Source of the DNA: Squalus acanthias | Lineage: Eukaryota | Length of the DNA stretch: 64,000 nucleotides | Direction: 5' to 3' | Assembly (NCBI GenBank): GCA_030390025.1 | Contig: CM059431.1 | Coordinates: 145,516,001-145,580,000 of the forward strand | Shown: in pieces, positions 5,121 to 39,140 of the stretch | Layout of the letters: each line of letters begins with the position of its first letter | Numbering within the stretch: the stretch's first letter is position 1 | Position numbers and translations under genes: made by a program | Notes under the pieces: model-generated | Seen by the model: the letters and a program-made list of their open reading frames with translations, nothing else | Told to the model about the DNA's origin: nothing | The model's database searches: none

Positions 5121-5664
5121 TTTACACACTGTCTGGTCTCACTGGGCACATTCTCCCCGGATTACACACTGTGGGAACTCCCTGGGCCCGTCTTCCCCGG
5201 GATAAACACTTTTGATCTCATTGGGCCAATCCTCCCCGGGTTACACACTGTCTGATCTCTCTATGCCTCTACTCCCTGTGTTAAACATTGTTAGATCTCA
5301 TTGGGCCTATCTTCCGCGTGTTACACAAGTTCTGATCACACTGGGCCCATTCTCCGCGGATTACACACTGTCTGATCTGACTGGGCCAATCCTTCCCGGG
5401 TTACAACCTGTCTGATCTCACTGGGAACATCCTCCCCGTGTTACACACTCTCTGATCCCACTGGGCCCATCCTCCTCGGGATATAGTCTGCCTGATCTCA
5501 CTGCTCCCATCCTCCCAGGGTTACACACTGTCTGATCACACTATGCCCATCCTCCCCGGGTTACACACTGTCTGATCTCACGGGGCCCATCCTCCCCGGG
5601 TTACACACTGCCTGATCTCACTGGTCCCATGTTCCTCGGTTTACACCTTGTCTTATCTCACTAG

Positions 5665-7192
5665 CCATAAAAAATATATTTAACTCCTTCGTGAATATAT
5701 TTAATGAATTGGCCTCAACTGCCTTCTGTGGTAGATAAGTCCACAGTTTCACCACTCTCTGGGTGAAGAAATTCCTCCTCATCTCTGTGGTGAATGGCTT
5801 ACCCCTTATCCTTAGATTATGACCCCTGGTTCTGGACTCCCCCGCCATCGGGAACAACCTTCCTGCATCTAGCCTGTCTAGTCCTGTTAGAATTTTATAA
5901 GTTTCAATGAGATCCCTCTCATTCTTCTAAACTCTAGCGAATACAAGCCCAATCGACCCAATCTCTCCTCATACGTCATTCCTGCCATCCCAGGTATCAG
6001 CCTGGTGAATCTTCGCTGCACTCCCTCCATGGCAAGAACATCGTTCCTCAGATAAGGCGATCAAAACTGCACACAATACTCAAGGTGTGATCTCACCAAG
6101 GCCCTGTACAACTGCAGGAAGACATCCTTGCTCCTGTACTCGAATCCTCTCGCTATGAAGGCCAACATACCATTTGCCTTCTTAAACGCCTGCTGCCCCT
6201 GCACGCTTAGCTTCAGCGACTGGTGCACAAGCACACCCAGAGCTCATTGCACTTCCACTTCTCCCACACTATTGCCGTTCAGATAATCATCTGCCTTCCT
6301 GTTTTTGCCACCAAAGTGGATAATCTCGCATTTATCCACTTTATACGGCATCTGCCATGCATCTGCCCAATCACCCAAATTGTCCAAATCATACTGGAGT
6401 TTCTCTGCATCCTCCTCACAGCACACACCCCCACCCAGCTTTGTGTCACCTGCAAACTTGGAGATATTACATATAGTTCCCTCGTCTAGATCATTAATAT
6501 ATAGTGAATAGCTGGTGTCCTAGCACCGATCCCTGCGGTACCCCACTAGTCACTGCCTGCCACTTCGAAAAAGACCCGTTTATTCCAACTCTTTGCTTCC
6601 TGTCTGCCAACCAGTTCTCTATCCAAGTCAGTACCTTACCCCCAACCCCATGTGCTTCAAATTTGCACGCTAACCTCTTATGCGGGACCTTATCGTAAGC
6701 CTTCTGAAAGTCCAAATACACCACATCCACTGTTTCTTCCTTATTCAGTCTACCAGTTACATCCTCAAACAATTACAGTAGATTAGTCAAGTACGATTTA
6801 CCTTTTGTAAATCTATGTTGAGTTTGTCCGATCCTGTCACTGTTTTCAAAGTGCTCTGCTATTACATCTGTTATAATGGAGTCTAGCATTTTCCCCACTA
6901 CCAATGCCAGGCTTACCGGTCTATTGTTCCCCGTTTTCTCTCCACCACCTTTTTTAAATAGTGGGGTTACATTAGCTACCCTCCAATCTATGGGAACTGT
7001 GCCAGAGTCTATAGAATTTTGGAAGATGACCAGCAATGCATCTACTATTTCTGGGACCACTTCCTTAAGTACCCTAGGATGTAGATTGTCAAACCCTAGG
7101 GATTTATCGGGCTTCATACCGTCAAATTGCCTAACACCATTTCCCTACAAATACTGATTTCATTCAGCTCTTCCATCTCATTAGACCTTATG
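5665..7192 (-). mobile_element. CR1 LINE ORF2 (RT) internal fragment, satellite copy 1 (type A)
   Basis: Translations [38 protein letters not shown]; frameshift at FTIY and an extra stop. Confidence 0.95.
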
Positions 7193-9613
7193 CTCCCCGG
7201 GTTAAACACTGTCTGATTTCACTGGGTCCTTACTCCCCGGGTTACACACTGTCTGATTTCACTGGGACCTTACTCCCCGGCTTAAACAATTACTGATCTC
7301 ACTTGGCCCATCCTCACCGGGATACAAACTGTCTGTTCCCACTGGGCCCACCTCCCCATCCCCCCGCCCCCCCGCCCCCCGCTGATTACACACTGTCTGT
7401 TCTCACTGTGCCCATCATCCTCGATTTACACACTTTCTGATCTCAATGGGCCCATTCTCCCCGGGTTACACGCTGTCTGATCTCACTGGGCCCATCCGCC
7501 CCGGGTTACACACTGTCTGATCTCACTGGGCCCATCCAGCCCGGGTTCACACTATCTGGTCTTACTCGGCCGATCCTCTCCGTGTTAAACACGGTGTGTT
7601 CTTACCGGGCCCATCCTCCCCGTGTTACACACTGTCTGTTCTCACTCGGTCCAACCTCCCCGGGCGAGGCACTGTTGATCTCACTTGGCACATCCTCCCC
7701 GGGTTACACACTGTCTGATCTCAATGGGCCTATCCCCCCCCCCCCGCTTGATTACACACTTCTGATCTCACTGGTCCCATCCTCCCCGGGTTACACACTG
7801 TCTGACCTCACTGGGCCAATCCTCCCGGGGTTACACACTGTCTGATCTCACTGTGCCCATGCTCCCCGGATAACACACTGTCTGATCTCACTGGGCTCAT
7901 CCTCCCCGGGTTACACACTGTCTGGGCTCCCTCGGCCGATCCTCTCCGTGTTACACACGGTGTGTTCTCCCTGGGCCCATCCTCCCCGTGTTACACACTG
8001 TCTGGTCTCACTCGGTCCATCCTCCCCGGGCGAGGCACTGTTGATCTCACTGGTCCCATCCTCCCCGGGTTACACACTGTCTGACCTCACTGGACCAATC
8101 CTCCCAGAGTTACACACTGTCTGATCTCCCTGTGCCCATCCTCTCCGGGTTACTCACTGTCTGATCTCACTGTGCCCATCCTCCCAGTGTTACACACTGT
8201 GTGATCTCACTGTGCCCATCCTCCCCAGGTTACACACTGTCTGATCTCACTGTGCCAATCCTCCCCGGGTTACACAATGTCTGATCTCACTGTGCCACTG
8301 CTCCCCGGGTTACACACTGTCTGATCTCACTGGGCTCATCCTCCCCGGATTACACACTGTCTGATCTCACTGTGCCCATCCTCCCCGGGTTACACACTGT
8401 CTGATCTCACTGTGCCCATCCTCCCCGGTATACACACTGTCTGACCTCACTGTGTCCAACCTCCACGTGTTACACAAAATCTGATCTAACTGGGCCCATC
8501 CTCCCCGGGTTACACACTGCCTGATCTCACTGGGCCCATTCTCCCCGGGTTATACACTATCTGATCTCACTGTGCCCATCCTCCCACAGTTACTCACTGT
8601 CTGATCTCACTGGGCCTATCCTCCCCGGGTTACACACTGTCTGATTTCACTGGGCCCATCCTCCCCGGGTTACACACTGACTGACCTCACTGGGGCCATC
8701 CTCCCCAGGTTACGCACCGTCTGATCTCACTGGGCCCATCCACCCCGGGTTACACACTGCCTGACCTCACTAGGTCCATCCTCCACGGGTTACACACTAC
8801 CTGATCTCACTGGGCGTATCCTCAGCGGGTTACACACTGTCTGTTCTCATTGAGCCTATCCTCCTTGCGTTACTCATTGTCTGATATCACTGGGCCCATC
8901 ATCCTCGGGTTCCACACTGTCTAATCTCAATGGGCCCATCCTCACCGGGTTACACACTGTCTCACCTCACTGTGCCCTTCCTCACCGGGTTACACACTGT
9001 CACATCTCACTTGGCCCATCCACCTCGGTTTAAAAACGGTCTGATCTGACTGGACCTATCCTCCTCGGGTTACACACTGTTGATCTCATTGGGCCAATCC
9101 TCCCCGGGTTACACACTGTCTGAACCCTCTTTGCCTCCACTCCCTGTGTTACACATTGTTAGATCTCACTGGGCCTATCTTCCGCGTGTTACACAAGTTC
9201 TGATCACACTTGGCCCATTCTCCGCGGATTACACACTGTCTGATCTCACTGGGCCAATCCTTCCCGGGGTACAACCTGTCTGATCTCACTGGGAACATCC
9301 TCCCTGTGTAACACACTCTCTGATCCCACTGGGCCCATCCTCCTCGGGATATAGTCTGCCTGATCTCACTGGGCCCATCCTCCCCATGTTGTGCATTGCC
9401 TCATCTCACTGGGCCCATCCTCCCCGGGTTACACACTATCTGATCACACTGTGCCCATCCTCCCCGGGTTACACACTGTCTGATCCCACGGGGCCCATCC
9501 TCCCCGGGTTACCCACTGTCTGATCCCACGGGGCCCATCTTCCCCGGGTTAATCACTGCCTGATCTCACTGGGCCCATGTTCCTCGGTTTACACCTTGTC
9601 TGATCTCACTAGC

Positions 9614-11117
9614 CTTAAGAAATATATTTGACTCCTTCTTGAATATATTTAATGAATTGGCCTCAACTGCCTTCTGTGGTAGAGAAGTCCACAGTTTCAC
9701 CACTCTCTGGGTGAAGAAATTCCTCCTCATCTCTGCCCTAAACGGCTTACTCCTTAACCTTAGATTATGACCCCTGGTTCTGGACTCCCCCGCCACCGGG
9801 AACAACCTTCCTGCATCTAGCCTGTCTAGTCCTGTTAGAATTTTATAAGTTTCAATGAGATCCCTCTCATTCTTCTCAACTCTAGCGAATACAAGCCCAA
9901 TCGACCCAATCTCTCCTCATACGTCATTCCTGCAATCCCAGGTATCAGCCTGGTGAATCTTCGCTGCACTCCCTCCAAGACAAGAACATCGTTCCTCAGA
10001 TAAGGCGATCAAAACTGCACACAATAATCAAGGTGTGATCTCACCAAGGCCCTGTACAACTGCAGGAAGACATCCTTGCTCCTGTACTCGAATCCTCTCG
10101 CTATGAAGGCCAACATACCATTTGCCTTCTTAAACGCCTGCTGCACCTGCACGCTTAGCTTCAGCGACTGGTGCACAAGGACACCCAGAGCTCATTGCAC
10201 TTCCACTTCTCCCACTCTATTGCCGTTCAGATAATCATCTGCCTTCCTGTTTTTGCCACCAAAGTGGATAATCTCGCATTTATCCACATTATACGGCATC
10301 TGCCATGCATCTGCCCAATCACCCAACTTGTCCAAATCATACTGGAGTTTCTCTGCATCCTCATCACAGCACACACGCCCACCCAGCTTTGTGTCACCTG
10401 CAAACCTAGAGATATTACATATAGTTCCCCCGTCTAGATCATTAATATATAGTGAATAGCTGGTGTCCTAGCACCGATCCCTGCGGTACCCCACTAGTCA
10501 CTGCCTGCCACTTCGAAAAAGACCCGTTTATTCCAACTCTTTGCTTCCTGTCTGCCAACCAGTTCTCTATCCTAGTCAGTACCTTACCCCCAACCCCATG
10601 TGCTTCAAATTTGCACGCTAACCTCTTATGCGGGACCTTATCGTAAGCCTTCTGAAAGTCCAAATACACCACATCCACTGTTTCTTCCTTATTCAGTCTA
10701 CCAGTTACATCCTCAAAAAATTCCAGTAGATTAGTCAAGTACGATTTACCTTTTGTAAATCTATGTTGAGTTTGTCCGATCCTGTCACTGTTTTCAAAGT
10801 GCTCTGCTATTACATCTGTTATAATGGAGTCTAGCATTTTCCCCACTATCGATGCCGTTTTCTCTCCACCGCCTTTTTTAAATAGTGGGGTTACATTAGC
10901 TACCCTCCAATCCATGGGAACTGTGCAAGAGTCTATAGAATTTTGGAAGATGACCAGCAATGCATCTACTATTTCTGGGGCCACTTCCTTTAGTACCCTA
11001 GTATGTAGATTGTCAGACCCGGGGGATTTATCGGCCTTCAATCCCGTCAAATTGCCGCACACCATTTCCCTACAAATACTGATTCCATTCAGCTCCTCCC
11101 TCTCATTAGACCGTATC
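9614..11117 (-). mobile_element. CR1 LINE RT fragment, satellite copy 2 (type B, 24-bp in-frame deletion)
   Basis: ORF 10442-11134 RT motifs; KTASIVGK lacks GNYRPVSL. Confidence 0.95.
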
Positions 11118-12659
11118 CTCCCCGGGTTAAACACTGTCTGATTTCACTGGTTCCTTACTCCCCGGGTTACACACTGTCTTATCACACTGGGCCCATCCGC
11201 CCCGGGTTACACACTGTCTGATCTCACTGGGCCCATCCTCCCCGGGTTACACACTGCCCGATCACACTGGGTCCATCCTCCCCGGGTTACACACTGTCTG
11301 ATCTCACTGGGCCCATCCTCCCCGGGTTACACACTGTCTGATCTCACTGGGCCCATCCTCCCCGGGTGACGCACTGTCTGACATCATTGGGCCCATCCTC
11401 CCCGGCTTAAACAATTTCTGATCTCACTTGGCCCATCCTCACCGGGATACAAACTGTCTGCTCCCACTGGGCCCACCTCCCCGGGTTACACATTGTCTGA
11501 TCTCAATGGGCCCATCCCCTCGCACCCCCCCCCCCCCCCCCACCCTCCGCTGATTACACACTGTTTGATGTCACTGGGCCCGTCCTCCCCGGGTTACACA
11601 GTGTCGGATGTCACTGTACCCATCCTCCCCGCATTACACACTGTCTGACATCATTGGGGCCCATCCTCACCGGGTTACACACTTTCTGATATCACTGGGC
11701 CCATCCTCCTGGGTTACACACTGTCTGTCCACACTGGGCCAATCCTCCCCGCGTTACAGACTGTATGATCTCACTGTGCCCATGCTCCCCGGGTTACACA
11801 CTGCCTGATCTCACTGGGCTCATCCTCCCCGGGTTACACACTGTCTGATCTCACTGGGCCCATCCACCCCGGGCTCACACTGTCTGGTCTCACTCGGCCG
11901 ATCCTTTCCGTGTTAAACACGGTGTGTTCTTACTGGGCCCATCCTCCCCGTGTTGCACACTGTCTGGTCTCACTCGGTCCATCCTTCCTGCGCGAGGCAC
12001 TGTTGATCTCACTTGGCCCATCCTCCCCGGGTGACACACTGTCTGATCTCAATGGGCCTATCCCCCACCCCTGATTACACACTGTCTGATCTCACTGGTC
12101 CCATCCTCCCCGGGTTACACACTGTCTGACCACACTGGGCCATTCCTCCCAGGGTTACACACTGTCTGATCTCATTGTGCCTATCCTCCACAGGTTACAC
12201 TCTGTCGGATCTCTCTGTGCCTCCACTCCCTGTGTTACACATCGTTAGATCTCACTGGGCCTATCATCCACGTGTTACACAAGTTCTGATCACACTGGGC
12301 CCATTCTCCGCGGATTACACACTGTCTGATCTCACTGGACCAATCCTTCCCGGGTTACAACCTGTCTGATCTCACTGGGAACATCCTCCCCGTGTTACAC
12401 ACTCTCTGATCCCACTGGGCCCATCCTCCTCGGGATATAGTCTGCCTGATCTCACTGGGCCCATCCTCCCCGGGTTGTGCATTGCCTCATCTCACTGGGC
12501 CCATCCTCGCCGGACTACACACTATCTGATCACACTGTGCCCATCCTCCCCGGGTTACACACTGTCTGATCTCACGGTGCCCATCCTCCCCGGGTTACAC
12601 ACTGCCTGATCTCACTGGGCCCATGTTCCTTGGTTTACACGTTGTCTGATCTCACTAGC

Positions 12660-14186
12660 CTTAAGAAATATATTTAACTCCTTCGTGAATATATTTAATG
12701 AATTGGCCTCAACTGCCTTCTGTGGTAGATAAGTCCACAGTTTCACCACTCTCTGGGTGAAGAAATTCCTCCTCATCTCTGTGGTGAATGGCTTACCCCT
12801 TATCCTTAGATTATGACCCCTGGTTCTGGACTCCCCCGCCATCGGGAACAACTTTCCTGCATCTAGCCTGTCTAGTCCTGTTAGAATTTTATAAGTTTCA
12901 ATGAGATCCCTCTCATTCTTCTAAACTCTAGCGAATACAAGCCCAATCGACCCAATCTCTCCTCATACGTCATTCCTGCCATCCCAGGTATCAGCCTGGT
13001 GAATCTTCGCTGCACTCCCTCCATGGCAAGAACATCGTTCCTCAGATAAGGCGATCAAAACTGCACACAATACTCAAGGTGTGATCTCACCAAGGCCCTG
13101 TACAACTGCAGGAAGACATCCTTGCTCCTGTACTCGAATCCTCTCGCTATGAAGGCCAACATACCATTTGCCTTCTTAAACGCCTGCTGCCCCTGCACGC
13201 TTAGCTTCAGCGACTGGTGCACAAGCACACCCAGAGCTCATTGCACTTCCACTTCTCCCACACTATTGCCGTTCAGATAATCATCTGCCTTCCTGTTTTT
13301 GCCACCAAAGTGGATAATCTCGCATTTATCCACTTTATACGGCATCTGCCATGCATCTGCCCAATCACCCAACTTGTCCAAATCATACTGGAGTTTCTCT
13401 GCATCCTCCTCACAGCACACACCCCCACCCAGCTTTGTGTCACCTGCAAACTTGGAGATATTACATATAGTTCCCTCGTCTAGATCATTAATATATAGTG
13501 AATAGCTGGTGTCCTAGCACCGATCCCTGCGGTACCCCACTAGTCACTGCCTGCCACTTCGAAAAAGACCCGTTTATTCCAACTCTTTGCTTCCTGTCTG
13601 CCAACCAGTTCTCTATCCAAGTCAGTACCTTACCCCCAACCCCATGTGCTTCAAATTTGCACGCTAACCTCTTATGCGGGACCTTATCGTAAGCCTTCTG
13701 AAAGTCCAAATACACCACATCCACTGTTTCTTCCTTATTCAGTCTACCAGTTACATCCTCAAACAATTACAGTAGATTAGTCAAGTACGATTTACCTTTT
13801 GTAAATCTATGTTGAGTTTGTCCGATCCTGTCACTGTTTTCAAAGTGCTCTGCTATTACATCTTTTATAATGGAGTCTAGCATTTTCCCCACTACCAATG
13901 CCAGGCTTACCGGTCTATAGTTCCCCGTTTTCTCTCCACCACCTTTTTTAAATAGTGGGGTTACATTAGCTACCCTCCAATCTATGGGAACTGTGCCAGA
14001 GTCTATAGAATTTTGGAAGATGACCAGCAATGCATCTACTATTTCTGGGACCACTTCCTTAAGTACCCTAGGATGTAGATTGTCAAACCCTAGGGATTTA
14101 TCGGGCTTCATACCGTCAAATTGCCTAACACCATTTCCCTACAAATACTGATTTCATTCAGCTCTTCCATCTCATTAGACCTTATG
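12660..14186 (-). mobile_element. CR1 LINE RT fragment, satellite copy 3 (type A)
   Basis: Near-identical to copy 1, offset 6994. Confidence 0.95.
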
Positions 14187-16645: not shown

Positions 16646-18149
16646 CTTAAGAAATATATTTGACTCCTTCTTGAATATATTTAATGAATTGGCCTCAACT
16701 GCCTTCTGTGGTAGAGAAGTCCACAGTTTCACCACTCTCTGGGTGAAGAAATTCCTCCTCATCTCTGCCCTAAACGGCTTACTCCTTAACCTTAGATTAT
16801 GACCCCTGGTTGTGGACTCCCCCGCCATCGGGAACAACCTTCCTGCATCTAGCCTGTCTAGTCCTGTTAGAATTTTATAAGTTTCAATGAGATCCCTCTC
16901 ATTCTTCTCAACTCTAGCGAATACAAGCCCAATCGACCCAATCTCTCCTCATACGTCATTCCTGCAATCCCAGGTATCAGCCTGGTGAATCTTCGCTGCA
17001 CTCCCTCCAAGGCAAGAACATCGTTCCTCAGATAAGGCGATCAAAACTGCACACAATACTCAAGGTGTGATCTCACCAAGGCCCTGTACAACTGCAGGAA
17101 GACATCCTTGCTCCTGTACTCGAATCCTCTCGCTATGAAGGCCAACATACCATTTGCCTTCTTAAACGCCTGCTGCACCTGCACGCTTAGCTTCAGCGAC
17201 TGGTGCACAAGGACACCCAGAGCTCATTGCACTTCCACTTCTCCCACTCTATTGCCGTTCAGATAATCATCTGCCTTCCTGTTTTTGCCACCAAAGTGGA
17301 TAATCTCGCATTTATCCACATTATACGGCATCTGCCATGCATCTGCCCAATCACCCAACTTGTCCAAATCATACTGGAGTTTCTCTGCATCCTCCTCACA
17401 GCACACACGCCCACCCAGCTTTGTGTCACCTGCAAACCTAGAGATATTACATATAGTTCCCCCGTCTAGATCATTAATATATAGTGAATAGCTGGTGTCC
17501 TAGCACCGATCCCTGCGGTACCCCACTAGTCACTGCCTGCCACTTCGAAAAAGACCCGTTTATTCCAACTCTTTGCTTCCTGTCTGCCAACCAGTTCTCT
17601 ATCCAAGTCAGTACCTTACCCCCAACCCCATGTGCTTCAAATTTGCACGCTAACCTCTTATGCGGGACCTTATCGTAAGCCTTCTGAAAGTCCAAATACA
17701 CCACATCCACTGTTTCTTCCTTATTCAGTCTACCAGTTACATCCTCAAAAAATTCCAGTAGATTAGTCAAGTACGATTTACCTTTTGTAAATCTATGTTG
17801 AGTTTGTCCGATCCTGTCACTGTTTTCAAAGTGCTCTGCTATTACATCTGTTATAATGGAGTCTAGCATTTTCCCCACTATCGATGCCGTTTTCTCTCCA
17901 CCGCCTTTTTTAAATAGTGGGGTTACATTAGCTACCCTCCAATCCATGGGAACTGTGCCAGAGTCTATAGAATTTTGGAAGATGACCAGCAATGCATCTA
18001 CTATTTCTGGGGCCACTTCCTTTAGTACCCTAGTATGTAGATTGTCAGACCCGGGGGATTTATCGGCCTTCAATCCCGTCAAATTGCCGAACACCATTTC
18101 CCTACAAATACTGATTCCATTCAGCTCCTCCCTCTCATTAGACCGTATC
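16646..18149 (-). mobile_element. CR1 LINE RT fragment, satellite copy 4 (type B)
   Basis: Near-identical to copy 2, offset 7032, same 24-bp deletion. Confidence 0.95.
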
Positions 18150-19689
18150 CTCCCCGGGTTAAACACTGTCTGATTTCACTGGTTCCTTACTCCCCGGGTT
18201 ACACACTGTCTTATCACACTGGGCCCATCCGCCCCGGGTTACACACTGTCTGATCTCACTGGGCCCATCCTCCCCGGGTTACACACTGCCCGATCACACT
18301 GGGTCCATCCTCCCCGGGTTACACACTGTCTGATCTCACTGGGCCCATCCTCCCCGAGTTACACACTGTCTGATCTCACTGGGCCCATCCTCCCCGGGTG
18401 ACGCACTGTCTGACATCATTGGGCCCATCCTCCCCGGCTTAAACAATTTCTGATCTCACTTGGCCCATCCTCACCGGGATACAAACTGTCTGCTCCCACT
18501 GGGCCCACCTCCCCGGGTTACACATTGTCTGATCTCAATGGGCCCATCCCCTCGCACCCCCCCCCCCCCCCACCCTCCGCTGATTACACACTGTTTGATG
18601 TCACTGGGCCCGTCCTCCCCGGGTTACACAGTGTCGGATGTCACTGTACCCATCCTCCCCGCATTACACACTGTCTGACATCATTGGGGCCCATCCTCAC
18701 CGGGTTACACACTTTCTGATATCACTGGGCCCATCCTCCTGGGTTACACACTGTCTGTCCACACTGGGCCAATCCTCCCCGCGTTACAGACTGTATGATC
18801 TCACTGTGCCCATGCTCCCCGGGTTACACACTGCCTGATCTCACTGGGCTCATCCTCCCCGGGTTACACACTGTCTGATCTCACTGGGCCCATCCACCCC
18901 GGGCTCACACTGTCTGGTCTCACTCGGCCGATCCTCTCCGTGTTAAACACGGTGTGTTCTTACTGGGCCCATCCTCCCCGTGTTGCACACTGTCTGGTCT
19001 CACTCGGTCCATCCTTCCTGGGCGAGGCACTGTTGATCTCACTTGGCCCATCCTCCCCGGGTGACACACTGTCTGATCTCAATGGGTCTATCCCCCACCC
19101 CTGATTACACACTGTCTGATCTCACTGGTCCCATCCTCCCCGGGTTACACACTGTCTGACCACACTGGGCCATTCCTCCCAGGGTTACACACTGTCTGAT
19201 CTCATTGTGCCTATCCTCCACAGGTTACACTCTGTCTGATCTCTCTGTGCCTCCACTCCCTGTGTTACACATCGTTAGATCTCACTGGGCCTATCTTCCG
19301 CGTGTTACACAAGTTCTGATCACACTGGGCCCATTCTCCGCGGATTACACACTGTCTGATCTCACTGGACCAATCCTTCCCGGGTTACAACCTGTCTGAT
19401 CTCACTGGGAACATCCTCCCCGTGTTACACACTCTCTGATCCCACTGGGCCCATCCTCCTCGGGATATAGTCTGCCTGATCTCACTGGGCCCATCCTCCC
19501 CGGGTTGTGCATTGCCTCATCTCACTGGGCCCATCCTCGCCGGACTACACACTATCTGATCACACTGTGCCCATCCTCCCCGGGTTACACACTGTCTGAT
19601 CTCACGGGGCCCATCCTCCCCGGGTTACACACTGCCTGATCTCACTGGGCCCATGTTCCTTGGTTTACACGTTGTCTGATCTCACTAGC

Positions 19690-21216
19690 CTTAAGAAATA
19701 TATTTAACTCCTTCTTGAATATATTTAATGAATTGGCCTCAACTGCCTTCTGTGCTAGAGAAGTCCACAGTTTTACAACTCTCTGGGTGAAGAAATTCCT
19801 ACTCATCTCTGTCCTAAATGGATTACCCCTTATCCTTAGATTATGACCCCTGGTTCTGGACTCCCCCGCGTTCGGGAACAACCTTCCTGCATGTAGCCTG
19901 TCCAGTCTTGTTAGAATTTTATAAGTTTCAATGAGATCCCTCTCATTCTTCTAAACTCTAGCGAATACAAGCCCAATCGACCCGATCTCTCCTCATACGT
20001 CATTCCTGCCATCCCAGGTATCAGCCTGGTGAATCTTCGCTGCACTCCCTCCATGGCAAGAACATCCATCCTCGGATAAGGCGATCAAAACTGCACACAA
20101 TACTCAAGGTGTGGCCTCACCAAGACCCTGTACAACTGCAGGAAGACATCCTTGCTCCTATACTCGAATCCTCTCGCTATGAAGGCCAACATACCATTTG
20201 CCTTCTTAAACGCCTGCTGCACCTGCACGCTTAGCTTCAGCGACTGGTGCACAAGGACACACAGAGCTCATTGCACTTCCACTACTCCCACTCTATTGCC
20301 GTTCAGATAATCATCTGCCTTCCTGTTTTTGCCACCAAAGTGGATAATCTCGCATTTATCCACATTATACGGCATCTGCCATGCATCTGCCCAATCACCC
20401 AACTTGTCCAAATCGTACTGGAGTTTCTCTGCATCCTCCTCACAGCACACACGCCCACCCAGCTTTGTGTCACCTGCAAACTTTGAGATATTACATATAG
20501 TTCCTTCGTCTAGATCATTAATATATAGTGAATAGCTGGTGTCCTAGCACCGATCCCTGCAGTACCCCACTAGTCACTGCCTGCCACTTCGAAAAAGACC
20601 CGTTTATTCCAACTCTTTGCTTCCTGTCTGCCAACCAGTTCTCTATCCAAGTCAGTACCTTACCCCCAACCCCATCTGCTTCAAATGTGCACGCTATCCT
20701 CTTATGCGGGTCCTTATCGTAAGCCTTCTGAAAGTCCAAATACACCACATCCACTGTTTCTTCCTTATTCAGTCTACCAGTCACATCCTCAAAAAATTCC
20801 AGTAGATTAGTCAAGTACGATTTACCTTTTGTAAATCTACGTTGAGCTGTCCCATCCTGTCACTGTTTTCAAATTGCTCTGCTATTACATCTTTTATAAT
20901 GGAGTCTAGCATTTTCCCCACTACCGATGCCAGGCTTACCGGTCTATAGTTCCCCGTTTTCTCTCCACCACCTTTTTTAAATAGTGGGGTTACATTAGCT
21001 ACCCTCCAATCCATGGGAACTGTGCCAGAGTCTATAGAATTTTGGAAGATGACCAGCAATGCATCTATTATTTCTGTGGTCACTTCCTGAAGTATCCTAG
21101 GATGAAGATTGTCAGAACCTGGGGATTTATCGGCCTTCAATCCCGACAAATTGCCTAACACCATTTCCCTACAAATACTGATTTCATTCAGCTCCTCCCT
21201 CTCATTAGACCCTATC
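19690..21216 (-). mobile_element. CR1 LINE RT fragment, satellite copy 5 (type C, more divergent)
   Basis: Same boundaries and FTIY frameshift; lacks the A- and B-specific lesions and has private ones. Confidence 0.95.
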
Positions 21217-23040
21217 CTCCCCGGGTTAAACACTGTCTGATTTCACTGGGTCCTTACTCCCCGGGTTACACACTGTCTGATCTCACTGGGCCCATCCTGC
21301 CCGGTTTACACACTGTCTGTTCACACTGGGTCCATCCTCCCCGGGTTACCCACTGTCTGATCTCACTGGGCCCATCCTCCCCGGGTTGCACACTGTCTGA
21401 TCTCGCTGGGCCCATCCTCCCCGGGTTACTCACTGTCTGATATCAGTGGGCCCATCTACCCCGGCTTAAACAATTTCTGATCGCACTTGGCCCATCCTCC
21501 CCGGGATACAAACTGTCTGTTCCCACTGGGCCCACCTCCCCGGGTTACACATTGTCAGATCTCAATGGGCCCATTCCCCCGCACCCCCCCCCCCCGCTAC
21601 TTACACACTGTCTGATCTCACTGGCCCCATCCTCCCCGGGTAACACAGTGTCGCATGTCACTGTACCCATCCTCCCCGTATTACACACTGCCTGACATCA
21701 TTGGGGCCCATCCTCACCGTGTTACACACTTTCTGATATCACTGGGCCCATCCTCCCGGGTTACACACTGTCTGTCCTCACTGGGCCAATCCTCCCCGCG
21801 TTACAGACTGTATGATCTCACTGTGCCCATCATCCTCGGTTTACACACTGTCTGATCTCACTGGAACCATTCTCCCCGGGTTACAAACTGTCTAATCTCA
21901 CTGGGCCCATCCACCCCGGGTACACACTGTCTGGTCTCACTCGGCCGATCCTCTCCGTGTTACACACGGTGTGTTCTCACTGGGCCCATCCACCCCGTGT
22001 TACACAGTGTCTGGTCTCACTCGGTCCATCCTCCCCGGGCGAGGCACTGTTGATCTCACTTGGCCTATCCCCCGCCCCCTGATAACACACTTCTGATCTC
22101 ACTGGTCCCATCCTCCCCGGGTTACACACTGTCTGATCTCACTTAGCCCATCCTCTCCGGGTTACTCACTGTCTGATCTCACTGTGCCCATCCTCCCAGT
22201 GTTACACACTGTCTGATCTCACTGTGCCAATCCTCCCCGGGTTACACACTGTCTGATCTCACTGGGCCCATTCTCCCCGGGTTACACACTCTCTGATCTC
22301 ACTGGGCCCATCCTCCCCGGGTTCACTCTGTCAGGTCTCACTCGGACGATCCTCTCCGTGTTACACACGGTGTGTTCTCACTGGGCCCATCCTCCCCGTG
22401 TTACACACTGTCTGGTCTCACTCGGTCCATCCTCCCCGGGCGAGGCACTGTTGATCTCACTTGGCCCATCCTCCCCGGGTTACACACTGTCTGATCTCAA
22501 TGGGCCTATCCCCCCCCCTCCTTATTACACACTTCTGATCTCACTGGTCCCATCCTCCCCGGGTTACACACTGTCTGACCTCACTGGGCCAATCCTCCCA
22601 GGTTTAGACACTGTCTGATCTCACTGTGCCCATCCTACCCGGGTTACACACTGTCTGATCTCACTGTGCCAATCCTCCCCGGTTTACACACTTTCTGATC
22701 TCACTGTGCCCATGCTCCCCGGGTTACACACTGTCTGATCTCACTGGGCTCATCCTTTCCTGGTCACTCACTGTCTGATCACACTGGGCCCATCCTCCCC
22801 GGGTTACACACTGTCTGATCTCACTGTGCCCATCCTCCCCCGGTTAATCACTGTCTGATCTCACTGGGCCTATCCTCCCCGGTTTACACACTGTCTGATC
22901 TCACTGGGCCCATCCTCCCCGGGTTACACACTGTCTGATCTCACTGGGCCCATCCTCCCCGGGTTACTCACTGTCTGATCTCACTGTGCCCATCCTCCCC
23001 ATTGAATACACTGATCTCACTGGCAATCGCATTCTATCTT

Positions 23041-29082: not shown

Positions 29083-30660
29083 TAATATTGTCATTCTCGG
29101 CGGGAGATTGGATTCTGTGGTCCTGGCTGTGCCCCACCCGAAACCCCGCACATCTGGAGCTGGCGCTAATCGTCAGGTGTAATCTGAGATCAGTGAATTT
29201 CAATCAATTCCCTGTGCTCCAAGGACCAGTACATGTCGACCTGGGAGCTACTCGGCGGTCGGGATCCTCAATACCCGGGCCAGACACTGAGGGGTAATAT
29301 TTCGGGGGGTCTGCGGGCGCGTTTGTTGACGGGTCGGTGACATTTTTTTTGTCAATCCGCCGCCACGCGACTTTCCCGCATGTCGGGTCTATCAACTCTG
29401 AACAGACCCGACACGCGGCGGCGGGGAAGCAATTTACGTTATTATGACCTAGTTACGAGCCACTTAAAAAGAATTTTGAGCTCAACTTCAGAGTTTACCA
29501 GGAGGCCCACGGGCTCCACGCTGCTCGGAGATCACGTCAGGTAAGCAGGGCGGGAGCTGAATGGCCATGGAATCATCTCATTACTTGAGAGCTGGAAATG
29601 TTCTATAAAAGATCCCATCTCTTAGCTGTTCACTTTCAACGCTCAGAAGCTGTTCGTTACTTAATTTGGAAGTCAGATTGAGCTTTATGCAGTTTGCAAG
29701 TTTTTGAGTAAACGCTGTATCCAGTGTCACTTCACTGGAACAACCTCTCTCACCATTGACAGATCGCTTCTGTCATCTCAACTTCACCTACCAACAATTA
29801 CATTATATCGGTGGCATCGAAACTATCTGAATTTGGTCCTCAGAATCCCAACAAGATCAGCCCCAGCTCTAGCAGCACCAGGCGCACCAGCAGCACCAAC
29901 AACAACACAAAACAGCTGCGCAATCAATAGATGCTGCACAGCACAGAGGGCACAGAACCCGACCAAACTGCTGCCCGAGACGCCAGGCAAGGCCTCACCA
30001 TGGCCAGATTTACTTCACTTGACGCTGCACATCCTGGCTAACACATTTTGCGCTAGGTTTGCAACAGGCCACATCAATTCCACAAAGCATCCCTACAATG
30101 CCCAAGCCATTCCTTCACATTCATCAACATTGCCGTTATGTCTCACCATTCAATGCTACTCACTAATCCACTTCCAAAGGTGCACACGAATTTGTCGATG
30201 AACGGAAAGTGTCGAAAATAAAGAATTCAATGTTTGACAGCACATTAACTGAAACTTCATATGAACATTAGCTAAAACACACAAATGCCTATGGATGCGT
30301 GTTGCAGTAGAGAACATAAGAAAATAAGAGATAGGAACAGGAGTAGGCTTATTGGCCCTTCGAGCCTGCTCCGCCATTCAATATGATCATGGCTGATCTT
30401 CTACCTCATCTCCAATTTCCCGCACTATATCCATATCCATTGATTCCCTGAATATTCAACTATCTATTGATCTATCTCTTGAATATACTCAACGACGAGT
30501 CTCCACGGTCCTCTGTGGTAGAGAATTCCAAAGATTCACTAGCTTCTGAGTGAAGACATTTCTCCTAATCTCAGTCCTAAATGGCCGACCCCTTATTCTG
30601 AGACTGTGATCCCTGGTTCTGGACACCCCTCCTTGCATCTATCCTATTAAGTTCTGTAAG

Positions 30661-31380
30661 GCCAGCGTAGATAGTACATGGGTGACCAAAAGGCAGAGCA
30701 AGGGCAGGAAGGTGGTGCAGAAATCCCCTGGGGTTGTCTCCCTTAGCAACAGGTTCACCGCCTTAGGTGCTGTTGTCGGGGGGGATGACTCATCGGGGGA
30801 AGGCACCAGCAGCCAGGCTCATGGCACCATGACTGGCTCTGTTGCAAAGAAGGGAGGGAAAAAGAGTGGCAGGGCTATAGTAATAGGGGATTCGATTGTA
30901 AGGGGAATAGATAGGGGTTTCTGTGGTCGCGACCGAGACTCCAGGATGGTATGTTGTCTCCCTGGTGCAAGGGTCAAGGATGGCTCGGCGCGGGTGCAGA
31001 ACATTCTGGAGGGGGAGGGGGAACAGCCAGTTGTCGTGATACATGTTGGTACCAACGACGTAGCTAAAAAAAGGGAAGAGGTCCTACAAGTAGAATTTAG
31101 GGAGTTAGGAGCCAAGCTAAAAAGTAGGACCTCGAAGGTAGTAATCTCTGGATTACTACCAGTGCCACGTGCTAGTAAGAGTACAGAGAACAGGATAGTT
31201 AGGCTAAATACGTGGCTTGAGCAGTGGTGTAAGAGGGAGGGTTTTAAATTTTTGAGGCATTGGAACCAGTTTTGTGGTAGGTGTGACTTATACAAAAGGG
31301 ACGGTCTACACCTGTGCAAAGATGGAACTGATGTTCTCGGGGTAATTTTTGATAAAGCAGTTCGGGAGCATTTAAACTAG
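30661..31380 (+). CDS. CR1 ORF1, SGNH/GDSL esterase-like domain (N-terminus missing)
   Basis: Motifs [27 protein letters not shown]; frame open from the insertion junction to TAG at 31378-31380. Confidence 0.9.
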
Positions 31381-34323
31381 TATGGCAGGGGGCTAGAAAC
31401 CTATGTAGTGAAATAGAGGAAAGTGAAAGGCAGTCAGAAATAAATGGTAAAAGGGTGAGGAACAAAAAACAAAGGGCCAAACTAATTCATAAAAAATGTG
31501 AGCATAGAAAAAGCCTGAGGGTTTTATACCTTAATGCGAGAAGCATCAGGAACAAGGTAGATGAATTAGCTGTGGAAATAGAGGTTAATAATTATGATCT
31601 AATTGGGATTACGGAAACATGGTTGCAGGGTGAGCAGGGCTGGGAGCTTAACATACAGGGGTATTCAGTATTTAGGAAGGATCGACAAAAAAGAAAGGGA
31701 GGAGGGGTAGCATTGCTGGTAAAAGAGGGGATAAATGCAATTGAAAGGAAGGATATTAACTCAGTTAATACAGAATCTATATGGGTGGAGCTAAGAAATA
31801 GCGAGGGGCGAAAAACATTAATAGGAGTGGTATATAGGCCTCCAAATAGTAAAATAGAGGTTGGGGAGGGCATCACGAGGGAAATTAGAGAAGCGTGCAA
31901 TAAGAGCACAGCTGTCATCATAGGTGACTTTAACTTACATATAGATTGGAATAGCCTAATCAGTAAAAATAATGAGGAGGAGAAATTCCTTGAGTGTTTA
32001 AGGGATGGTTATCTGGATCAATATGTCGAGGAACCAACTCGGGAACAGGCTATATTGGACTGGGTACTGTGCAATGAGAAGGGACTAATTAGTAATCTTG
32101 TTGTACGGGGACCCTTGGGTAAGAGCGATCATAACATGATCGATTTCTCACTCGAAATGGAGAGCGAAGAAATTGACTCAGAGACTAAGGTCCTGAATTT
32201 AAACAAGGGGAATTATGATGCCATTAGACGGGAACTGAGTAGGTCTGATTGGACAACGTTCCTGGGAGGACTGGAGGTAGATAAACAATGGCAAGCATTT
32301 AAAGACAGAATGACAAAATTGCAAAAATTGTTTATACCAATCTGGCATAAAAGGAAATCTAAAAAGGTGACTCAACCGTGGATAACAGGGGAAATTAGAG
32401 ACAGCATAAAATCCAAAGATAGGGCATATAAAATAGCCAAAAAAAGCGCCAGAGCGGAAGATTGGGAACAGTTTAAGATAGAGCAAAGGAGGACAAAGGG
32501 CTTAATCAAGAGGGGCAAAATAGCTTACGAAAGCAAGCTGGCGGAAAATATAAAAACTAACTCCAAAAGCTTTTATAAGTATATCAAGAGGAAAAGACTG
32601 GTGAAAACCAAAGTTGGCCCATTGCAGTCAGATACGGGGGAATATATAACGGGAAATAAGGAAATGGCAGACCAACTAAATGCATACTTTGGGTCCGTCT
32701 TTACGAAGGAAGACACAAAAAACCTCCCTGGGATATCGGGAAAAATAGGGACATTAGCAAAGGAGGAACTGACGCAAATCAATATCTCTAAGGATATGGT
32801 GTTAAGGAAGCTAAAGGGATTGAAGGCGGACAAATCCCCAGGGCCTGATAACATGCATCCTAGGGTACTGAAGGAGGTGGCCCTAGAGATAGCGGATGCA
32901 CTAAGTATGATTTTTCAGAATTCATTAGACTCGGGAACAGTGCCCATGGATTGGAGGGTAGCTAACGTTACCGCACTATTCAAAAAGGGGGGTAGGGAAA
33001 AAGCAGGTAATTACAGACCTGTAAGCCTTACATCAGTTGTGGGCAAAATGCTGGAGTCCATCATTAAGGATGAAATAGCGGAGCACTTAGCAAATGGGGA
33101 CAGGATAGGACAGAGTCAACATGGATTTACAAAGGGTAAATCGTGCTTGACTAATCTATTGGAATTTTTTGAGGGAGTAACTGGTAAAATAGATGGGGGA
33201 GAGCCAGTAGATGTGGTGTACCTGGACTTCCAAAAGGCCTTCGATAAGGTCCCACATAAAAGATTAGCAGGGAAAATTGAAGCTCATGGGATAAAGGGGA
33301 AAGTATTGACGTGGATAGAGAACTGGCTGTCAGATAGAAAACAGAGAGTTGGAATAAACGGCTCATTTTCTGAATGGCAGGCAGTAACAAGTGGGGTACC
33401 ACAGGGATCTGTCCTGGGTCCCCAGTTGTTCACAATTTACATTAATGACCTGGATCAGGGAGTCGGATGCAGCATTTCCAAATTTGCAGACGACACTAAA
33501 CTAGGAGGGGGGGGTGGGCTCAGAGGAGGAGACCAGGAAGCTCCAGAGCGATTTGGACAGACTGGGTGATTGGGCGGATAAATGGCAGATGCACTATAAT
33601 GTGGACAAGTGCGAAGTTATCCACCTTGGGTGCAGGAACGGGAGGGCAAATTATTATTTAAATGGCAATAAATTGGGAGAGGGGGAAGTACAGAGAGACC
33701 TGGGTGTTTTTGTACACCAGTCACTGAAGGCGAGCATGCAGGTGCAACAGGCGGTCAAGAAGGCAAACGGTATGCTGGCCTTCATAGCAAAAGGGTTGGA
33801 ATACAGGAACAGGGATACCTTGCTGCAGCTGTACAGGGCACTGGTGAGACCACACCTCGAGTACTGTGTACAGTTTTGGTCGCCTCATCTGAGGAAAGAT
33901 GTTCTTGCCATGGAGGGGGTGCAGCGGCGATTCACCAGGCTGATACCAGGAATGGCGGGATTGACCTATGAGGAGAGACTATGTAGTTTAGCGATGTACA
34001 CACTGGAGTTTAGAAGATTGAGAGGGGACCTCATAGAAGTGTATAAAATTCTGACAGGTCTAGACAGACTAGATGCAGAAGGAATGTTTCCCTTGGCGGG
34101 TGAGAACAGAACTAGAGGACATAATTTAAGGATAAGGGCTAAACCATTTAGGACAGAAATGAGGGGGAATTTCTTCACTCAGAGGGTGGTGAACCTGTGG
34201 AACTCATTGCCACAGAGGGCAGTGTACGCCAGCTCATTAAATATATTTAAGAGGGAATTAGATATATTTCTACAGGCAAAAGGGGTTAAGGGTTACGGAG
34301 AGAAGGCGGGGACGGGATACTGA
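31356..34323 (+). CDS. CR1 ORF2 (APE endonuclease + reverse transcriptase) with one +1 frameshift in a G8 run at 33507-33514
   Basis: YLNARS, ITETWL, YRPP, GDFN, SDHN (APE); [20 protein letters not shown] (RT). The frame opens after TAA 31353-31355; first in-frame ATG is at 32136. Confidence 0.92.
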
Positions 34324-34911
34324 ATTGGAGGATCAGCCATGATCTCATTAAATGGCGGAGCAGGCTCGAAGGGCCGGATGGCCTACTCCTGCTCCTATCT
34401 TCTATGTATCTATGTATCTATGTAAATTTCTATATTTCAATAAGATCACGTCTCATTCTTCTAAACTCGAGAGAATATAGGCCGAGTCTACTCAGCCTGT
34501 CCTCATAGGACAATCTCGCATCTCACTAATCAGTCTGGTGAACCTTCGTTACACTCCCTCTGTGGCAAGTACATCCTTCCTTAGTTAATGAGACCAAAAC
34601 TGTAACAATATTTGAGGTGTGGTCACGCCAGGGCCCTACATAATTGCCGTAAAACTTATTTACTTATAACCAAATCCTCGTGTAATAAAGGCCAACATAT
34701 CATTTGCTTTCCTAATTGCTTGCTGTACCTGCATGTTAACTTTCAGTGATTCGTGTACAGGGACACCCAGGTCCCTCTGAACACCAACATTTCCCAATCT
34801 CTCACCATTTAAAAAATACACTGCTTTTCTATTTTCCTACCAAAGTGGATAACTTCACATTTCTCCGCATTATATTCCATTTGCCTTTTTCGTTCCCATT
34901 CACTTAGTCTG

Positions 34912-35183: not shown

Positions 35184-38100
35184 ATGGAAAACATCCTTAA
35201 ACCATCGCGTCTTGAATTGGACCCAAACACCCCAGCAGCCGGTAAGGTGTGGAAACACTGATATCGCACGTTTGACAATTTTCTTGAATATTGCAAGGCT
35301 GATGATGACTCAAAGTTGCGGATACTCATCAACTGTGTCACCCCGAATGTATTTCAGTATGTGCAGGAATGGGGCAGTTACGAGGAGGCAATTCGGACGC
35401 TTAAGAGACTATATACTAAGACACCGAATGAGGTCTATGCCAGACATCTACTAGCTACAGCCCAACAAGGGCCGGAGGAATCCATTGATAAATTCCTCCA
35501 AGAGCTTCGCAGACTTAGTATGGACTGTAACTTTCAGGCGGCCTCAGCTGAGCTGTACCGTGAAGAAATGATCCGTGATGCTTTCATCTGCGGGCTTGCC
35601 TCCCCATTTATACGCCAGCGTCTACTGGAAAGTAAGACACTTGAGCTTCAGAGAGCTTATGACATGGCTTGCTCTCTAGATCTGGCAAAAAGAAATCCAG
35701 ACCTTTATACAGTGCCCAGACCTCGGTCTACTGCCTTAACTACAGTCAGGCAATTTAAGAGGCCACAGGTGAACTCTATTAGGGAGGTCTTTATCCCTGA
35801 CGATCAATCTGATGACTTCACTGATGAAGAGGATGATGACCCCACTGTGGCAGCCTCTTGGCAATCTAAGAAATGCTTCTTTTGTGGTGATGAGTTTCAC
35901 CCTCGGAAATTCTGCCCTGCTCGCAATGCGTTTTGCAGTCATTGCAACAAAAAGGGTCATTTTGCAAAGGTTTGCCTATCAAAAGCCTCTACGAGGGCAT
36001 ATCAAGCTAAGTCCTACCGAACTGCCCCTGTAAGGGCATATCAAGATGTTCCAGCTAAAATCTATCGTGCTTCCTCTTGGGTTTCCTCTCGAAGAAACAC
36101 ACCAAGAGTTTCAGCCACTCTTTGTGCAACGACACCAATTACAGCTGCTTGTCCTCAGAACCTATTCCATGCAGCTACAAAAGCATCAATTAATGGACAT
36201 ACTTTAGATGCCTTAATTGACTCAGGTAGCACTGATAGTTTCATTAGGGAACAGATTGTTGCAGAGTTAAAGCTACATGTTTTCCCATCGGACCAGGCAG
36301 TTGCGATGGCTCAGTCATCACTTAATACCAGAATTTCTGGCTTTTGTATGGTTGAAATAACACTTAATAGTCACAGGTATCCCTCCACCCGGCTTTCGGT
36401 GCTCAAGGACTAATGTAGTGATCTTATCTTAGGGCTGGATTTTCAAAAGCAGCATAAGAAGCTCACCATTGAGTTCGGCAGATCCAAACCTGAACTCACT
36501 ATTTCTAATATACGACCTCGATTACCGTTCTGTGCATTGTCAGCAGCTTTACTGGATGAACCCACACTGTTTACCAGTATCCCTCCTCGATGCAAACCGA
36601 TTATAACAAAGTCACGACGTTTCAGTCTGGAAGACCAGCCTTTTATTGCGGCTGAGATTTCTCGGCTTTTAGCAGAGGATATCATCGAGCCTTGTTCGTC
36701 GCCATGGCGCACCCAGGTCGTTATTGTTAAGAACCATCTACAACCTCACAAGAAACGGCTGTGCATTGACTATTCACAGACCATCAATCAATATACGGAC
36801 TTGGACGCATACCCATTGCTGCGCATCGATGATATGGTTAATAAACTGGCTGAGTACACGGTGTTCTCAACATATGATCTGAAAAGTGCCTATCATCAGG
36901 TACCCTTGAAGGTCTCAGACAAGCAGTATACGGCCTTTGAAGCCAATGGACGGCTGTATAAATTTCGTCGCCTCCCCTTTGGGGTCACTAATGGAGTGGC
37001 TGTCTTCCAGCGAGCAATGGATGACCTGGTCAAACAGGAAGACTTGAAGGATACGTTTCCTTATCTGGACAATATTACTGTCGCAGGTCGCAATCAGCGG
37101 GAACATGACGCCAATCTCCAACGATTTTGGGATGCACTCCAGCACCGCAATTTGACATTAAATGCGGCTAAATCCATTGAGTCACAGTCAACCATCAACA
37201 TCCTTGGCTATTGTGTGGGCAATGGCATCATTAAACCTGACCCTGAAAGGCTTCGCCCACTCCAAGAACTCCCGCCACCTAAGAATCCGGCCTCCTTGCG
37301 CCGGGCCCTCGGCCTGTTTGCATACTATGCTAAATGGATTCCTAACTTCTCGGACCGAATCCAACCTCTACTGAAGGCCAGCACATTCCCACTAGACACA
37401 GCGGCTGTTGCAGCCTTTAACCTCCTGAAAAAACAGTTGGAGAAAGCGGCTCTTCACTCCATCGATGAGAGTCTTCCTTTTGTTGTTGAGTGTGATGCCT
37501 CGGAGGTGGCGATCTCGGCCACTCTGAATCAGGAAGGTCGTCCGGTGGCATTTTTGTCCAGGACTTTTCAAGGGGCTGAGCTACATTATCCTCCAGTCGA
37601 GAAAGAAGCTACAGCCATCATAGAGGCAGTACGGAAGTGGAGTCATCTCCTAGCTCGCCAGCACTTTACCTTAATCACGGACCAGCGATCGGTCGCCTTC
37701 ATGCTCGATAATCGAAAACGGACCAAAATTAAAAATAATAAAATCCAGCTTTGGCGGCTGGAATTGGCCTCTTTTGGTTACACCATCCACTATCGACCTG
37801 GCAAGGAGAATGTGGCTCCGGATAACCTCACACGAGCATTCTGCTCCGCCATGGCACCCTCTACGCTCGTAGACATCCATGATGGGTTGTGTCATCCGGG
37901 CGTTACTCGCATGCTACATTTCGTGCGGTCCCGAAATCTCCCAATCTCTACCGGTGATGTAAAGAAGATGTGCTCGGACTGCAGAGTCTGTGCGGAATTG
38001 AAACCTCAGTTTTTCGGCCCCTCGGGTGGTATACCCAAAGATGCGACCCAGCCAACGCAACGGCTTAGCATCGATTTTAAGGGGCCGTTGCCCTCTTCAA

Positions 38101-39140
38101 CTCGCAACACTTATCTATTGACCATGGTCGATGAGTATTCCCGTTTTCCGTTTGCCTTTCCCTGCCCCAATATGCTGACGACCACGGTTATCAGCTGCCT
38201 TGAGCAGGTATTTGCTTTCTGTGGCATGGCATCCTATGTTCATTCGGATCGTGGCCCTTCTTTTATGTTAGGAGAACTCAAGGCCTATCTCTCGGAACGG
38301 GGTATTGCTGCCAGCAAAACGACGCCTTATCATCCGGTCGGGAATGGGCAAGTCGAGCGTTATAACGCTATCATCTGGAATGCGGTACGTCTGGCTTTGA
38401 GATCTCGGGGCCTACCCAACCAGCAATGGGAAGCAGTACTTCCAGACGCATTACACTCCACACGGTCCCTCCTTTCGACCGCCACAAATACGACGCCTCA
38501 TGAACGGTTCTTCCGATTTCAGCGTCGCTCATCCTATGGGATATCTCTCCCGTCGTGGCTGACTACACCGGGACCAGTGCTACTCCGAAGATATGTCTGG
38601 GCGTCTAAGAATGACCCCCTGGTAGATGAGGTTGAGCTCACTCACGTCAACCCTACCTACGCCTATATTCGGTATCCTGACTTTCGGGAATCTAACGTGT
38701 CATTGAGGGATCTGGCTCCCTGCCCGCCGAAACATAGAGGGACATCCGGGGATGATATTGTACCAGGCACATCTCTGGGCTCGCCAGGTGCCTCTCATCA
38801 CGATCTGGATCTGACGCTGGCTGTTACCTCACTCCAGCGTGCCGACCTGGGGCAGACTGACTATGAGCCCGTCGGGGCTCGCACGTGCAGCCACGATCCA
38901 CCCCGTACCGTACGCTCGGAAACGGATCTGCCACAGCCCTGCCCGACACCCGTTCGGGCACCAGTACACAGTCAGGATCGTCCTGACCCCTCACAGAGGG
39001 GGCTGGATCACTCGGACTCTGGTCCACGGCCCGCGGCGGGTAAACGGGCTCGGGGCCCTCTACCGCTACGAGAACTCAAACGGGTGCGGCTCTCCCTCGT
39101 CCAGCGGCTACAAAATGGAGGGAGCATCCCGGCCTCCTAA
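35184..39140 (+). pseudogene. Single-frame gag-pol polyprotein with two nonsense mutations (TGA 35259-35261, TAA 36411-36413)
   Basis: ATG 35184 (MENILKPSRLELDP) is in frame with ORFs 35316 and 36537; CFFCGDEFHPRKFC and CSHCNKKGHFAKVC knuckles, LIDSGS protease, LPFG and YLDN RT, ECDAS RNase H, HPG/CxxC, DFKG, HSDRG, GQVER integrase. Confidence 0.93.

Follow-up and report, generated by a model that had tools for sequence, protein, structure and literature searches.

A candidate −1 frameshift signal at the ORF1/ORF2 junction of CR1-group LINEs

It has long been an open question how the second open reading frame (ORF) of a long interspersed nuclear element (LINE) is translated when its RNA is bicistronic. 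A LINE copy in the genome of Squalus acanthias has an ORF1 and an ORF2 that overlap in different frames. The copy lies in a stretch of 64,000 nucleotides (nt) of contig CM059431.1 (assembly GCA_030390025.1, positions 145,516,001 to 145,580,000, forward strand), the whole of which is referred to below as the window. An original prediction, made from the letters of this stretch, had proposed that ribosomes reach an AUG-less ORF2 by a programmed −1 frameshift at the end of ORF1. Here we report that the junction carries a three-part motif, composed of a heptamer, an adjacent stop codon and a G-run, which is conserved at the nucleotide level far beyond any coding need of ORF1. With a probability of roughly 0.6, this motif would make some ribosomes slip back by one base and so lead to translation of ORF2.

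The junction in the window and the element that carries it

The features of the element and of its junction, in coordinates of the window, are as follows.

30657-34420 (+): LINE copy of lineage A, 5'-truncated, with the start of ORF1 missing (delimited by blastn against the intact copy L170)
30610-31380 (+): open frame of ORF1 (frame 1; 256 codons here), a GDSL/SGNH esterase with the C-terminus ...REHLN, then a stop
31353-31355 (+): TAA, five codons before the heptamer, that shuts the −1 frame
31356-33569 (+): open frame of ORF2, −1 relative to ORF1, encoding an APE endonuclease and a reverse transcriptase (RT), broken near 33507 by one extra G
31371-31377 (+): slippery heptamer T_TTA_AAC, in ORF1 phase (X_XXY_YYZ)
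31378-31380 (+): ORF1 stop codon TAG, abutting the heptamer
31381-31387 (+): 7-nt spacer TATGGCA, variable among lineages, with an out-of-frame ATG that yields only MAGG and a stop
31388-31392 (+): G-run GGGGG, ten bases past the heptamer, conserved
32136-32138 (+): earliest ATG that is in frame with ORF2 (codon 255, counting from the heptamer), downstream of the SDH codons
33505-34323 (+): remainder of ORF2 (C-terminal part of the RT and tail), in another frame owing to the 1-nt insertion

The final codons of ORF1 are CAT TTA AAC TAG (31369-31380). The original prediction had described this end, the heptamer in its X_XXY_YYZ phase and the adjacency of the TAG, and sequence and ORF listing agree with it. 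It had also described a −1 frame that opens after the upstream TAA, overlaps ORF1 by 25 nt and runs into the APE domain; the ORF listing confirms the overlap and gives no stop in this frame until 33569, and the protein encoded there matches Exo_endo_phos, Exo_endo_phos_2 and RVT_1 in Pfam. Because the TAA at 31353-31355 closes the −1 frame, ORF2 cannot be entered from further upstream. The ATG codons at 31382, 31403, 31444 and 31496 all lie outside the ORF2 frame, as had been claimed, and the first in-frame ATG does stand just past the SDH codons, so that the earlier observation on the junction is correct in every coordinate.

The copy in the window is 99.26% identical to L170 over 3764 nt with one gap, and its match begins at position 722 of L170, which places its start about 75 codons into ORF1; intact copies have an ORF1 of 315-316 codons, versus 256 here. 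The single gap sits at window position 33507 and corresponds to the one extra G that disrupts the RT. With its 5' truncation and this insertion, the copy itself is dead. ORF1 matches Lipase_GDSL_2 (3.1e-11) and OSK (1.2e-8) in Pfam and the ORF1 esterase of ZfL2-1 in the PDB (4c1b, 7.7e-29), in an alignment that stops at residue 162 of 171 of the chain, short of the C-terminus. Both features that characterise the CR1/L2 group are found, namely an SGNH/GDSL esterase as ORF1 and an ORF2 in which APE precedes RT, and esterase ORF1s are described as the sole ORF1 type of the CR1 and L2 lineages recovered in part of a published account (PMC13343379). We therefore assign the element to the CR1 group, a name that rests on its ORF1 type and its cartilaginous-fish homologues, with no RT tree behind it. 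A tblastn search for a second ORF1/ORF2 junction in the window gave only 5'-truncated CR1 fragments.

Lineage A is very young and abundant and has intact members. When the ORF1 esterase was searched against the 3.7-Gb genome of the same species, a first look returned 77,051 candidates, of which 150 were scored; these best 150 are 99-100% identical, the 100% match being the copy in the window itself, and mostly have an open frame of 316 codons. Four of eight lineage-A copies that were fetched combine an intact ORF1 of 315 amino acids with an unbroken ORF2 of 983 codons, counted from the heptamer to the stop, and 29 of 37 copies have no in-frame Met ahead of the one at codon 255. A recently amplifying element therefore appears to make ORF2 without a usable AUG. 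As a side observation, 0.60-0.68 of the sampled junction words were present in sequencing runs (X1-X21) that carry six organism codes between them (A, B, F, G, H and I; these are not our lineage letters); a near-identical junction in these runs indicates that lineage A or close kin is common to several of the labelled organisms.

Conservation of the motif across lineages

Sixteen representatives were compared, six of them lineages of the same genome (A-F) and ten unrelated metagenome contigs, with pairwise ORF1 identities from 20 to 85% (median 33%). As the top matches in the genome were always the youngest copies, lineages B-F were found using ORF1 homologues of other species as queries. Two of the queries, P0030 and P0036, revealed nothing closer in this genome and for the most part retrieved lineage B a second time; one of these searches did give both D (L085) and E (L086), which are single copies. 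A search of the genome with junction DNA, in which common words were skipped, gave only 8 candidates and was of little use for sampling lineages. Scanning metagenome contigs with an ORF1 alignment identified 56 loci of eukaryotic DNA, 34 of them with a match reaching the C-terminal region of ORF1. The motif is present at the end of ORF1 in 11 of these 34; one of the motif-bearing loci, L101, has only 5 nt downstream and was kept outside the set of 16. A further 5 run off the contig, 4 are decayed copies in which the motif can still be recognised, although displaced or mutated (L090, L099, L128 and L133), and in the remaining 14 the frame stops within the esterase region, which makes them uninformative rather than negative.

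The final codons of ORF1 are TTA AAC in all 16 representatives. By way of control, 2-6 codons are used at each of 17 further degenerate columns of ORF1 whose residue is shared by at least 14 of the 16, the commonest codon accounting for 31-87%. Specifically, three conserved Leu columns use 5, 4 and 6 codons and a conserved Asn column has 11 AAT and 5 AAC, and across these ORF1s TTA makes up 13% of Leu codons and AAC 46% of Asn codons. The codon before the terminal Leu ends in T in 15/16, while encoding eight different residues; against a background of 0.279 for T at third positions, and with lineages counted as independent, this has a binomial P of 5.8e-8. This T, the X of X_XXY_YYZ and thus the first letter of a two-tRNA slippery heptamer, has no coding role in either frame, since in 11 of the 16 a stop shuts the −1 frame at a distance of 1-5 codons upstream (across the lineages other than that of the window, the upstream stop is 1-37 codons away).

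Conservation extends past the heptamer, as summarised here for the 22 nt of the motif.

Positions 1-9 (TTTAAAC TA): agreement in 15-16 of 16
Position 10: G in 11, A in 5
Positions 11-17: variable, agreement in 6-13 of 16
Positions 18-22: G in 16, 16, 14, 16 and 13 of 16

A stop codon directly follows the heptamer in every representative (TAG in 11, TAA in 5, TGA never), and the 21 positions upstream of the motif are variable. Within the G-run, Gly is encoded by GGG in every case; at conserved Gly columns of ORF1, by contrast, 3-4 codons are in use. That there was a G-rich tract after the stop had been noted in the original prediction and is borne out, although its conservation across lineages had not been recognised.

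The APE domain lies in the −1 frame and is contiguous with the heptamer in lineages A-F, in the metagenome contigs L089, L090, L091, L092, L096, L098, L104 and L105, and in the decayed copies L095 and L128; L093 begins in the −1 frame after the heptamer and then breaks. Wherever an APE domain could be found, therefore, ORF2 is in the −1 frame. The two comparative outcomes on which the earlier proposal had staked itself, a heptamer kept at synonymous positions and an ORF2 that stays in −1 phase with it, are seen in every readable lineage, with neither a lapse of TTA AAC nor a change of ORF2 phase. Because the arrangement holds in 16/16 while synonymous sites elsewhere in ORF1 are scrambled, it is more than chance; the heptamer is under selection even between lineages with only 20% of ORF1 residues in common.

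At the protein level the end of ORF1 can be followed more widely. As read from proteins alone rather than from the DNA of the species concerned, 62 of 73 ORF1 homologues terminate in LN, and these come from sharks, rays, turtles, frogs and monitor lizards as well as from entries for metagenomes and sequencing runs. Predictions that are truncated, chimeric or extended make up the remaining 11, which include the sole chimaera homologue, ending LNY, and the sole bichir homologue, which does not have the LN end. Only 2 of the 62 have a residue before LN that is incompatible with a T-ending codon. Furthermore, two ray gene models (P0017 and P0019) read ...G-FKL-x-x-QGAG... from the esterase into the APE domain, and the same −1 frame sequence must therefore follow ORF1 there. 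These esterase-APE models are likely annotation artefacts made from LINE ORFs; one of the two carries the name of a host enzyme, hydroxyacid oxidase 2.

Possible routes from ORF1 to ORF2

The comparative evidence supports the −1 frameshift interpretation, the mechanism of which we infer as follows. The Leu and Asn tRNAs would re-pair from UUA_AAC to UUU_AAA and decoding would resume at CUA in the ORF2 frame, giving an ORF1-ORF2 (esterase-APE-RT) fusion at a fixed low ratio to the ORF1 protein (ORF1p). The pause would be supplied by the adjacent stop codon and the unstructured G-run, and not by a pseudoknot. By geometry, a stop codon in the A site would put the G-run at about the ribosomal mRNA entry, which suggests that the Leu and Asn tRNAs slip while the ribosome is waiting to terminate.

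A heptamer in X_XXY_YYZ phase with the −1 ORF open across it, as in a canonical −1 signal, is found in 15 of the 16 representatives, L089 excepted. The stable structure that such signals have 5-9 nt downstream was not found, in folds that included no pseudoknot-specific prediction. The original prediction had seen no strong 3' structure by eye, and folding of 31371-31500 concurs, with a minimum free energy of −12.2 kcal/mol and no excess stability over shuffled sequences (z = +1.15). None of the 16 lineages shows a three-tier G-quadruplex pattern, and 7 show a two-tier one. As a frameshift signal, the motif would thus be an unusual variant, with an adjacent stop and a G-run and without a classical structure.

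The junction is covered by two RNA-seq runs with the species label, at a depth of about 75-100 or more. No base of the motif is altered in them, and neither an indel nor a joint reaches 5% of reads, which speaks against a frame change at the transcript level, whether by polymerase slippage, editing or splicing.

Several observations weigh against frameshifting. In the 120 nt after the heptamer, z ranges from −2.2 to +1.6 across the 16 lineages and no conserved structure emerged, in an analysis that included no dedicated pseudoknot search, and the G-run has no conserved pairing partner (best downstream duplex z −1.8 to +1.5 against shuffled partners). The first position of the heptamer in L089 is G instead of T (G_TTA_AAC), two of the protein homologues carry Glu before LN, and the lineages are related, so that the binomial P of 5.8e-8 overstates their independence. 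The RNA reads map to both strands and may derive from host introns or transcripts or from DNA, not from transcription of the element. Finally, start codons in the ORF2 frame do occur: 16-28 codons downstream in lineages B, C, L089 and L105, and at the stop or in the spacer in 5 of the 16 (E, as UAAUG, L096, L098, L104 and L121). More generally, 9/16 have an ATG within the 7-nt spacer or beside it, against about 2 expected by chance; five of these are in the ORF2 frame, two in that of ORF1 and two in the third.

Because five lineages have an ORF2-frame ATG at the stop, termination followed by reinitiation stays a rival. In this case ribosomes would not slip at all; they would restart at a nearby ORF2-frame AUG or at a non-AUG codon, and the heptamer would be kept for some other reason. 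The UAAUG of lineage E, the ATG that starts 3 nt after the stop in L096, L098, L104 and L121, the over-representation of spacer ATGs and the stop that invariably abuts the motif all fit such a restart, and there are precedents in the stop-start coupling of SART1 (described in part of PMC3708506) and in the AUG-independent ORF2 of L1 (described in part of PMC5009743). Nevertheless, reinitiation leaves unexplained the fixed positions of the heptamer, namely the T before Leu, the choice of TTA among six Leu codons and of AAC rather than AAT. In A, B, L092 and L095 the spacer does contain an ATG, but in a frame other than that of ORF2, and 7 of the 16 lineages have no spacer ATG. A restart AUG at the stop in the downstream frame, as stop-start coupling requires, is absent from the lineage of the window, where the spacer ATG leads only to MAGG and a stop, and occurs in 5/16. 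The very abundant lineages A and F lack any in-frame ATG before the APE domain: the first lies within or after it, at codon 255 in A and at codon 166 in F (7 of 10 copies). L091 and L092 have none before this domain either, their first being at codon 58. The original prediction had named an in-frame AUG upstream of the APE domain as evidence that would count against it; none is present in the lineage of the window, and sister lineages B, C and E and five metagenome lineages do have one. An ATG for ORF2 is thus dispensable, and we consider reinitiation without slippage unlikely as the general route, although some lineages could make use of it.

A closer relative of frameshifting is post-termination repositioning, in which ORF1p would be released, the ribosome with its tRNAs would slide back by one base on UUUAAAC and decoding would resume at CUA, giving a separate ORF2 protein (ORF2p) without an initiating Met. 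Such repositioning is known from in vitro work only. It would explain why a two-tRNA slippery heptamer is combined with a stop that is always adjacent, as well as why the ATG is dispensable, and it would agree with the common picture of LINE ORF1p and ORF2p as separate proteins. On sequence data it is indistinguishable from ordinary −1 frameshifting, and such data would not by themselves separate a fusion product from an ORF2p made after release of ORF1p; we regard it as improbable.

Least probable of all, in our view, is that the motif has a role unconnected with ORF2, for example as an RNA-binding or packaging site or as a C-terminal LN signal of ORF1p, with ORF2 being translated by an unrelated route. 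The G-run has no assigned role, which leaves room for such a function, as does the retention of LN in 62 of 73 proteins. A protein signal of this kind would, however, fix neither the choice of codons nor the third position that precedes them, and the motif lies exactly where the frame must change, always in the phase of ORF1 and always followed by an open −1 ORF2.

Surroundings, precedents and implications

The rest of the window is rich in other repeats. Just downstream of the LINE lies a Ty3/gypsy-type long terminal repeat (LTR) retrotransposon (35262-39140, +), whose gag-protease (with a CCHC knuckle and DSGS) and pol (RT, RNase H and integrase-like) share one frame. A single TAA (36411-36413) splits the two, between the DSGS of the protease and the ILGLDF motif, and is more suggestive of a nonsense mutation in a copy that has decayed than of programmed readthrough. 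Arrays of 40-bp tandem repeats occupy approximately 5100-9000 and further parts of 1-30000, with about 175 register positions at 40-bp spacing. Interleaved with them are 5'-truncated CR1 RT fragments on the minus strand, at 6371-7135, 13365-14129 and 20395-21221, with a period of about 7 kb, and further minus-strand fragments at 10445-11122 and 17477-18154. The recurrence of such fragments among the arrays suggests a higher-order tandem duplication.

A close likeness to the CR1 junction is found in the ORF1a/1b site of coronaviruses and in some retroviruses, which have the identical U_UUA_AAC in X_XXY_YYZ phase, a short overlap with a −1 polymerase ORF (for coronaviruses, as given in part of PMC8499926) and a heptamer kept at synonymous positions. 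These sites need a pseudoknot or stem-loop 5-9 nt downstream, whereas the CR1 junction has no conserved structure, always has an adjacent stop and carries a linear G-run at 10 nt; its host, moreover, is a LINE. For the two unusual parts of the motif there are partial precedents among other viruses. Certain plant-virus −1 sites have a stop directly after the heptamer, and arterivirus frameshifting is stimulated by a protein on a linear motif about 10 nt downstream. These viruses use other heptamers, and the arterivirus motif is C-rich, in contrast to the G-rich run seen here.

Among LINEs, the APE-type elements TRE5-A and TRE3-A of Dictyostelium are stated to require a −1 frameshift for ORF2 (in part of PMC5911963). 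They differ in LINE clade and host, and the part of that paper cited here gives neither a slip-site sequence nor a conservation analysis. SART1 of Bombyx also has a bicistronic RNA in which expression of ORF2 is tied to termination of ORF1, with the same UAAUG as in lineage E. It depends on an AUG and on a downstream RNA structure (according to part of PMC3708506), whereas the lineage of the window has no in-frame AUG and no conserved structure. Human L1, too, expresses ORF2 from a bicistronic RNA without need of an AUG, by a mechanism that is described as unknown (parts of PMC5009743 and PMC3708506); its ORFs, instead of overlapping, lie on either side of a spacer, and no slippery heptamer has been described there.

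A full-text literature search found no slippery site or frameshift for the ORF1/ORF2 junction of CR1, and older CR1 papers may mention the overlap. In 300,000 characters of its text, a 2016 review of recoding does not contain the term 'CR1' and covers only HeT-A, TART and mammalian LINEs among non-LTR elements, and a 2026 survey of the CR1 group makes no mention of frameshift, overlap, slippery or stop codon.

A wider view, which is possible and which we put forward only tentatively, is that the motif could be an ancient, structure-independent −1 recoding signal of jawed-vertebrate esterase CR1s. Slippage would then take place at a waiting stop codon and would be set by a binder of the G-run, either a host protein or ORF1p, which would fix the ratio of ORF1p to ORF2p in the LINE group that is most widespread among vertebrates.

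The junction motif is simple, sharply defined and deeply conserved over 22 nt, and it is directly testable in a reporter. It also offers a practical marker for the start of CR1 ORF2s, which are truncated by ORF finders that require an ATG. If it is indeed a frameshift site, it would add to the eukaryotic −1 signals one that works without a pseudoknot and would predict an unexpected esterase-APE-RT fusion protein, and CR1-group LINEs would be using a strategy like the Gag/Gag-Pol expression of retroviruses.

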